A stretch of DNA of 34,826 nucleotides from a virus. Its lineage: Duplodnaviria; Heunggongvirae; Uroviricota; Caudoviricetes. The stretch lies in IMG/VR virus record IMGVR_UViG_2877251553_000002, one strand, 5' to 3'. This document shows positions 22,949-23,686 of this stretch, piece after piece. Made by a program: the position numbers and the translations under genes. Under the pieces are notes generated by a model, which ran no database searches, had not been told where the DNA came from, and saw only the letters and a list, made by a program, of their open reading frames with translations. Position 1 is the first letter of the stretch, and the number at the start of each line of letters is the position of its first letter.

Positions 22949-22957
22949 TTCAGCCTA

Positions 22958-23677
22958 CCATGGTTCGGCCGGAGCAAGAAGCATCGCCACAATGGCAACC
23001 CGGAGAGGCTACCAGATGGGACGCTGGCTTGCTGGCAGGCTCATGAAAGAGCTGGGGCTGGTCAGCTGTCAGCAGCCGACTCACCGGAATAAACGTGGTG
23101 GTCATGAACATGTTGCTATCCCTAACTACCTTGAAAGGCAGTTCGCCGTGACCGAGCCAAATCAGGTGTGGTGCGGTGATGTGACCTGTATCTGGACGGG
23201 TAAGCGCTGGGCGTACCTCGCCGTTGTTCTCGACCTGTTCGCAAGAAAACCAGTGGGCTGGGCCATGTCGTTCTCGCCGGACAGCAGGCTCACCATGAAA
23301 GCGCTGGAAATGGCATGGGAAACCCGTGGTAAGCCCGGCGGGGTGATGTTCCACAGCGATCAGGGCAGTCATTATACGAGCAGGCAGTTCCGGCAGTTAT
23401 TGTGGCGATACCAGATCAGACAGAGTATGAGCCGGCGCGGAAACTGCTGGGATAACAGCCCAATGGAACGCTTCTTCAGGAGTCTGAAGAACGAATGGAT
23501 GCCGGTGGTGGGTTACGTAAGCTTCAGCGAGGCAGCTCACGCCATAACGGACTATATCGTTGGATATTACAGCGCACTAAGACCGCACGAATATAACGGT
23601 GGGTTACCCCCAAACGAATCGGAAAATCGATACTGGAAAAACTCTAACTCGGTGGCCAGTTTTTGTTGACCACTTCA
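22958..23677 (+). mobile_element. IS911 3' fragment (~720 bp, lacks left end and orfA)
   Basis: Identical to the 3' part of the full copies, ending GGCCAGTTTTTGTTGACCACTTCA; the OrfB frame here ends ...[15 protein letters not shown] with a stop inside the terminal repeat. Confidence 0.85.
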
Positions 23678-23686
23678 ATGGCGACA

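Follow-up and report, generated by a model that had tools for sequence, protein, structure and literature searches.

A probable deletion scar beside a truncated IS911 stands in place of the head and lysis genes of a defective Shigella dysenteriae prophage

The stretch of 34,826 nucleotides analysed here (the window) carries a defective prophage of Shigella dysenteriae, in which a fragment of IS911 stands where intact relatives carry their lysis and head genes. We believe, with a probability of about 0.8, that this locus is a deletion scar, which formed when IS911 inserted into the endolysin gene and a transposase-independent deletion at a short stretch of microhomology then removed one end of the element together with the neighbouring phage genes.

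Results

The extent of the loss was determined by comparison with an intact prophage of Escherichia coli CFSAN029787 (L001, locus at yfaQ/ipaHa). Positions 22955 and 23678 of the window correspond to positions 21957 and 31355 of L001, so that 9,397 bp are absent from the window. In L001 this block contains ten genes, all identified by PHROGs with E-values from 1e-32 to 1e-187. The lysis part consists of the endolysin and an Rz-like spanin and is followed by an Ant-like regulator; the rest comprises the small and large terminase subunits, the portal, a MuF-like head morphogenesis protein, the head maturation protease (DUF2213), a minor head/cement protein and the major head protein. When the ten proteins were compared with the whole window by tblastn, no match was better than E = 0.27, and in the same search the holin and the first retained gene matched the window at 97-100%. 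This bears out the first-pass annotation, which had claimed from the letters alone that terminase, portal, capsid and endolysin were absent. None of the components on which packaging competence was judged (small and large terminase, portal, protease/scaffold and major head protein) was found within the window, all that is left of the endolysin gene is its first 10 nt, and the remaining segments were all assigned to IS elements, tail genes, the immunity region or integrase fragments.

It had also been supposed that a related intact phage would have these genes between the holin and the retained structural genes, and this was the case in all of the four intact relatives (L001, L014, L005 and L006), which carry head and lysis genes between the same holin and neck gene. 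The equivalent interval in the prophage of E. coli FDAARGOS_943 (L014, locus at pphA/ipaH3) spans 10,662 bp, including an IS600 inside the endolysin gene, and L005 and L006 have the same gene order with a different lysis cassette. In IMG/VR, 42 contigs include the first 22 bases of the first neck gene. In 41 of them the major head gene ends directly upstream of it, and the sole exception (L013) has the same scar as the window. Among 5,426 complete E. coli genomes, the neck module was present in seven, and the best matches were stool isolates with ipaH genes.

The sequence that replaces the block is a 5'-truncated IS911 of the IS3 family (22958-23677, + strand). A 720-bp stub between the holin and the neck genes had been described at first pass, and its coordinates were right within a few bases. 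The stub covers about nt 530-1250 of the element, that is, the 3' three quarters of orfB and the right terminal inverted repeat. This repeat of 36 bp (23642-23677, +), as read from the sequence, has its tip ...CCACTTCA at 23677; it ends ...GACCACTTCA at this position, and the two full-length copies of IS911 in the window end likewise at the right. The identity of the stub is 99.7-99.9% to these two copies (aligned to about nt 530-1248/1249), 99.0% at the nucleotide level to the annotated IS911 of Shigella phage Sf6 and 99.7% to a PGAP-annotated IS911 in E. coli VL7S7. Its ORF matches positions 144-368 of the 369 in the IS3 transposase model NF033516 (E = 1.8e-77). A shared 10-bp flank at the right ends of the three IS911 copies was dismissed as a BLAST extension over chance similarity.

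The identity to IS911 is thus high, but the other attributes of the element are incomplete. The left inverted repeat is missing, and the pair of 36-bp terminal inverted repeats (5'-TG...CA-3') is reduced to the right one. The stub is also without orfA, the -1 frameshift site and the 5' quarter of orfB that are needed for the OrfAB transposase, and orfA and orfB are present in the two full copies. A 3-bp target-site duplication was not found at the stub, where the right flank is ATG and the left end is deleted. By its sequence, the stub is a fragment of IS911 and not a complete member of the family. With one end and no orfA it is therefore immobile, and its 720 bp still offer homology at which other IS911 copies could recombine. 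The stub (22958-23677) and the corresponding part of one full copy (24639-25357) form 720-bp inverted repeats, 961 bp apart, around the holin-tRNA cassette. Recombination between them would flip the cassette, which had one orientation in all fetched genomes. In both full copies (34150-34218 and 24639-24700) one base is missing from a C-run near the 3' end of orfB, and orfB consequently reads through the end of the element; unlike them, the orfB of the stub (23600-23669) retains the canonical stop. The missing base is either a real frameshift shared by the full copies or a homopolymer sequencing error.

On the right side of the stub, the class II (P21 S-type) holin gene (23687-23902, -; 71 aa) is intact. 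It was assigned by PF04971 (E = 1.1e-35; 121.8 bits against a cut-off of 26) and PHROG holin families, with the endolysin start codon and 10 nt downstream, and WP_000839570.1, encoded by the E. coli prophages L014 and L002, has exactly the same protein sequence. Of the SAR-type endolysin gene rrrD, the first 10 nt (ATGTCGCCAT; 23678-23687, -) remain between the holin and IS911; they are identical to the start of rrrD in L001 and L014. Base 23687 is common to the stop codon of the holin (23687-23689) and the ATG of the endolysin, the same one-base overlap as in L001 and L014. The right tip of IS911 (23677) is separated by 9 nt from the holin stop codon, and as 10 nt of rrrD lie between the tip and the holin, IS911 sits in codon 4 of the endolysin gene. 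A complete and intact lambdoid lysis cassette (holin, endolysin and spanin) was not found in the window. Upstream of the holin, a phage tRNA cluster (24195-24505, -) with Gly-TCC, Thr-TGT, Arg-TCT and a tRNA with a CAT anticodon was detected by ARAGORN, and clusters of the same make-up are annotated in L002, L014 and L025.

The position of IS911 behind the holin is found in other prophages as well. Three independent insertions, full or partial, were located 1-61 bp past the stops of class II holins in three different prophages, namely L025 (12872-14049), L002 in E. coli VL7S7 (15001-16310) and the window (23677-23687). The IS911 beside the holin in L025 is flanked by an ATT/ATT target duplication, and the lysis genes downstream of it are intact. 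Such repeated insertion near holin stops could reflect a target preference or selection for a knock-out of lysis.

On the left side, the first retained late gene (22610-22948, -), assigned by PHROG and tblastn, belongs to phrog_2085 and encodes 112 aa from an internal Met. In intact phages this gene is situated between the major head gene and a DUF4054 adaptor-like gene. Its start reads ATG GCT GAA ATG in the relatives versus TAG GCT GAA ATG in the window; since the AT of the ATG was lost, the 112-aa ORF starts at the former Met4 of a 115-aa protein. Residues 2-115 of WP_000829563 align with the window at 100% in tblastn. The last phage bases (22949-22955, -) comprise codons 2-3 of the 115-aa gene and the G that remains of its ATG, and the blastn match to L001 and L014 ends at 22955.

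The neck module and the 5' end of the sheath gene follow at 20353-22604 (-), with 99.6% identity to L001 and L014 and with Pfam and PHROG matches. The order is a DUF4054/E217 gp27-like gene, a Neck1-like gene, an E217 gp28-like gene, the neck terminator and the sheath gene, which is cut at 20353 by an IS66-family element. The label of connector genes, given to this block at first pass, was right for the block as a whole, although phrog_2085, the gene at its head, is without an assigned role. The neck genes at 20682-22155 are decaying by point mutation. The Neck1-like gene (194 aa) is frameshifted into 110 and 84 aa, and the gp28-like gene encodes 101 aa versus 121 aa in the relatives. The neck terminator has 141 aa versus 181 aa in the relatives, and this short form is also present in some S. 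dysenteriae (L009 and L020).

The mode of the deletion was examined at the left junction. On the + strand, the phage parent reads ...TACCATTTCAGCC|AT(A/G)AC..., the IS911 parent reads ...GGCATCAGCC|ATGGTTCGG... and the product in the window reads ...TACCATTTCAGCC-TACC-ATGGTTCGG.... Both parents carry the 8-9-bp sequence TCAGCCAT(G) on the same strand, one copy at about nt 522-530 of IS911 and the other overlapping the start codon of the gene that follows the major head gene, a geometry that agrees with a deletion within one chromosome. The product has four extra nucleotides (TACC) within the repeat. The junction is accordingly TCAGCC-TACC-ATGG, versus TCAGCCATGG for a clean microhomology product. 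In 33 of the 42 IMG/VR phages the phage site is TCAGCCATG, which gives a microhomology of 9 bp. If IS911 had the position and orientation that it has now, about 9.9 kb separated the direct repeats. A run of eight matching bases right at a breakpoint would arise by chance about once in 1e4-1e5 trials, even with a few registers allowed.

The junction filler (22956-22959) is the four nucleotides by which TACC exceeds a clean microhomology join, and its TA (22956-22957) matches neither parent. Together with the following AT, TACC makes a second copy of the phage sequence TACCAT (22943-22948), 13 nt away. A phage with a natural GGTAGGCTG upstream of the first neck gene, by which the TA would be phage-derived, was found neither in IMG/VR nor in the 5,426 E. 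coli genomes.

A different origin of this junction would be an adjacent deletion made by the transposase. IS911 would have transposed within the molecule beside an inverted-repeat-like sequence upstream of the first neck gene, leaving a complete element, and the left part of the element would then have been lost in at least one truncation starting from the left inverted-repeat tip. We consider this course of events unlikely. The phage octamer CCATTTCA (22945-22952) does resemble the IS911 tip CCACTTCA at seven of eight positions and lies exactly 3 bp from the end of the phage DNA, and 3 bp is the spacing of the target duplication and of the circle junction of IS911. Two variants of the junction (see below) also share one phage-side endpoint, while the IS911 side differs by 203 bp. 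However, a transposase-made adjacent deletion is recognized by an intact element with its terminal repeat at the junction, whereas the left inverted repeat is absent here and the junction falls at internal nt ~530. Because the left breakpoint is inside IS911, there was no canonical transposase-made adjacent deletion. The IS911-adjacent deletion proposed at first pass is correct in that 9,397 bp were deleted beside IS911, with this refinement of the mechanism. Under such a course of events, the 8-9-bp identity of the deleted IS911 bases with the retained phage bases would be an unexplained coincidence, with a chance of roughly 1e-4. Moreover, TACC resembles neither the left inverted-repeat tip (TGAA) nor the phage (ATAA/ATGA), and its presence in both variants argues for sequential events rather than independent ones from a full-length element. 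A full-length precursor was not found in IMG/VR, the JGI metagenomes or the GTDB representatives. Members of the IS3 family transpose by a copy-out-paste-in route and are not known for adjacent deletions.

The scar is not confined to the window. Positions 12619-32941 are collinear with CP045784.1 and 99.89% identical to it, and this accession is Shigella dysenteriae CFSAN029786 (supplement of PMC9046306). The same junction was found in at least 17 fetched assemblies. The form in the window (type A) reads CCATTTCAGCCTACCATGGTTCGG across the junction, and a second form (type B) reads CCATTTCAGCCTACCCAGGTGTGG. The junction 26-mer is exact in L004, L007-L012, L013, L016 and L019-L022, and a truncated copy is present in L024. 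The loci are in CP026807, CP045784, PSSQ01, CP026823, PSST01, CP026840 (S. dysenteriae ATCC 9753), CP026819, CP026832 (ATCC 49346), CP026825 (ATCC 9751), CP176669, AKNG01 and the IMG/VR contig, with the truncated junction copy in a short-read Logan contig. As the junction is common to at least 17 assemblies, the deletion is an old one that has become fixed in this lineage of S. dysenteriae. Judging from these shared bases, the scar predates the diversification of the S. dysenteriae strains that bear it.

IS911 is a multi-copy element, with three copies in the window alone, and a collapsed or mis-joined repeat in the assembly might create a false junction. We give this almost no credence, for the identical junction was recovered at no fewer than 17 loci from independent assemblies, including several closed chromosomes, a junction-spanning short-read contig and the IMG/VR contig. 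The left junction is also located in unique sequence, where IS911-internal DNA, filler and phage DNA follow each other.

The type B scar was found in UYIT01000003 (L003/L015), CP026834 (L017, S. dysenteriae ATCC 49347) and CP026805 (L018, 2017C-4522). In this form TACC is kept and a further 203 bp of the stub (window 22960-23162) are absent, with no microhomology, and the endpoint is 0-1 nt from the first junction. Because the filler TACC is common to both forms, type B derives from the type in the window or from a common product. The coincidence of the endpoints is unlikely for a random deletion and hints at something site-specific there. A contribution related to the transposase, for which the inverted-repeat-like octamer and the endpoint shared by types A and B speak, is kept here as a minority view that we rate as improbable. 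It is likewise improbable that the left junction is a recurrent site-specific breakpoint, at which transposase supplied in trans by full IS911 copies cuts at the octamer CCATTTCA and produces nested deletions, type A and then type B. If this were true, it would be a natural case of surrogate-end activity, with an IS3-family transposase shaping the decay of a prophage.

The rest of the prophage has been altered by many IS elements. One full-length IS911 (copy B, 24639-25887, -) is inverted with respect to the stub and replaces the Q/nin/replication region next to the tRNAs; it abuts the tRNA leader at 24639, and the Q-like antiterminator region is also gone. The other full-length IS911 (copy C, 32971-34218, +) interrupts the integrase gene and points the same way as the stub. 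An N-terminal piece of the integrase (25888-26238, -) adjoins the left end of copy B, and the catalytic C-terminal piece (34221-34823, +; within 34221-34826) adjoins the right end of copy C. A 3-bp target duplication, CAG, is common to the flanks of both integrase fragments. The immunity segment with Rha, DUF1391, cI and YdaT (30006-32970) is collinear with L014 and inverted relative to the late genes. These features indicate that IS911 inserted into int and then recombined with the inverted copy that replaces the replication/Q region.

The two flanks of the stub might also stem from two different prophages. The holin-tRNA piece could have been joined to the tail module of another prophage by an IS-associated rearrangement, in which case there was no single 9.4-kb deletion. 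Shigella chromosomes are much rearranged at IS copies, and the immunity region of this prophage is itself inverted. The holin-tRNA segment is 95% identical to L001, versus 99.6% for the neck genes, and 99.5% identical to an unrelated prophage remnant, L002 of E. coli VL7S7. Nevertheless, we find a joining of two prophages very improbable, because in L014 a single prophage unites the identical holin, neck genes with 99.6% identity and a 962-bp stretch of 98.5% DNA identity that begins at the endolysin start and takes in the tRNAs, in the same order and orientation. The left junction is an illegitimate join inside IS911 and not the homologous exchange between two IS copies. In addition, when one IS911-IS911 inversion is undone, a single lambdoid order appears, consisting of int, the immunity region, tRNAs, holin, neck and tail.

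Other insertions disrupt the late genes. An IS66-family element of 2.45 kb is present in three copies (1-2349, 17909-20353 and 26347-28793), which are 99.7-99.8% identical and encode tnpA, tnpB and a transposase of 512 aa. The copy at 17909-20353 interrupts the tail sheath gene, and its flanks overlap, which suggests that the target was duplicated; its transposase ORF is broken into 324 and 260 aa. One of the copies adjoins a 127-bp fragment of IS1 (26225-26351). Complete IS1 copies are located at 4461-5228 and 15833-16600, and an IS2 at about 7171-8499 (NF006918, 726 bits); the genes hit by IS1 and IS2 are tail-fibre-assembly, tail-tube-region and baseplate/tail-fibre genes. The flanks of these IS1 and IS2 copies overlap by 7-9 bp, and they are therefore simple insertions without deletions, unlike the stub. 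The interval 28794-30009 contains a fragment of a second IS66-family element (tnpA-like and tnpB-like ORFs of 143 and 119 aa) and then the left 339 bp of IS600, the tip of which adjoins the ydaE/Rha region at 30006-30009. This 339-bp match (29671-30009) had been considered as a relocated and inverted piece of the terminase region and was rejected as such once it was recognized as IS600. The prophage is disabled many times over, and the head and lysis deletion is one event in a long decay, which went on after the scar was fixed in the S. dysenteriae lineage.

Discussion

In the reading that we favour, the scar arose in two steps. In the first, as the anatomy of the locus shows, IS911 entered codon 4 of the SAR-endolysin gene, 9 nt past the holin stop, oriented so that its right end faces the holin. 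Such an insertion would by itself be enough to knock out lysis. In the second, an illegitimate recombination between the two copies of TCAGCCAT(G), probably independent of both RecA and the transposase, would have taken out the first 530 nt at the left of IS911 along with 9,397 bp of the phage, from the remainder of the endolysin gene through the major head protein gene. The loss itself is evident from the alignment with the relatives, and the mechanism is suggested by the bases at the junction. TACC may be a templated copy of the nearby sequence, introduced by replication template switching or by synthesis-dependent microhomology joining. Short templated insertions are typical of both processes. 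The order of the two steps is inferred, since neither the precursor (a full IS911 in rrrD, with its left inverted-repeat junction) nor the right junction was present in IMG/VR, the JGI metagenomes or the GTDB representatives.

The closest known systems are the intact ipaH prophages of enteroinvasive E. coli (L001 and L014), with 99.5-99.6% DNA identity in the neck, tail and baseplate genes. They have in common with the window the class II holin, the tRNA cluster, the start of the SAR endolysin, and the order and orientation of these features. They differ in retaining the 9.4-kb block from endolysin to major head gene and in having far fewer IS insertions, and in L014 the endolysin gene is interrupted by IS600 rather than IS911. 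The prophage belongs to a type in which lambdoid early genes are joined to the head and tail of an E217-like myovirus, and which carries ipaH effector genes in enteroinvasive E. coli. The neck, sheath, tube and baseplate proteins of the window match the Pfam families E217_gp27, gp28, gp31, gp32 and gp41, named after Pseudomonas phage E217. The homology to that phage is only distant, however, and the window differs from it by a lambdoid early region, an enterobacterial host and the lack of head genes. The IS911 of Shigella phage Sf6 shares the right inverted repeat and the 3' part of orfB with the stub, but in Sf6 the element is complete and the phage viable, whereas the stub in the window is an immobile fragment (about nt 530-1250).

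Cryptic lambdoid prophages without whole modules are textbook cases. DLP12, Rac, Qin and e14 of E. coli K-12, like the defective, IS-flanked Stx prophage of S. dysenteriae type 1, are of the lambdoid kind; deletion and IS activity have cost them morphogenetic and/or lysis modules, and they stay fixed in the chromosome. DLP12 and Qin kept their lysis genes and lost their tails, while the prophage in the window kept the tail module and lost lysis and head. In the window the structural module is that of an E217-like myovirus rather than a lambda-like one. Pseudogenisation and rearrangement of Shigella genomes driven by IS elements, and the prophage context of the chromosomal ipaH genes, have been described (PMC8072062; PMC9046306).

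Without endolysin and spanin, the remaining pinholin-type holin alone would not be able to lyse the cell, and without terminase, portal, protease and capsid nothing could be packaged, if the gene content is taken as a guide. The phage that probably brought a virulence effector locus would thereby have lost host killing and spread, while its remnant stayed in the chromosome. We regard the scar as an ordinary illegitimate deletion and part of the ordinary IS-driven wear of prophages in Shigella, an already-known kind of event that leaves current understanding unchanged. It shows, nonetheless, a join that looks like microhomology or replication-error repair, and IS-associated loss of prophage genes is then not always a matter of transposase chemistry. 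As a marker of prophage decay in Shigella dysenteriae the locus is clean and datable, and lineages could be recognized by the scar and by the variant that is 203 bp shorter.
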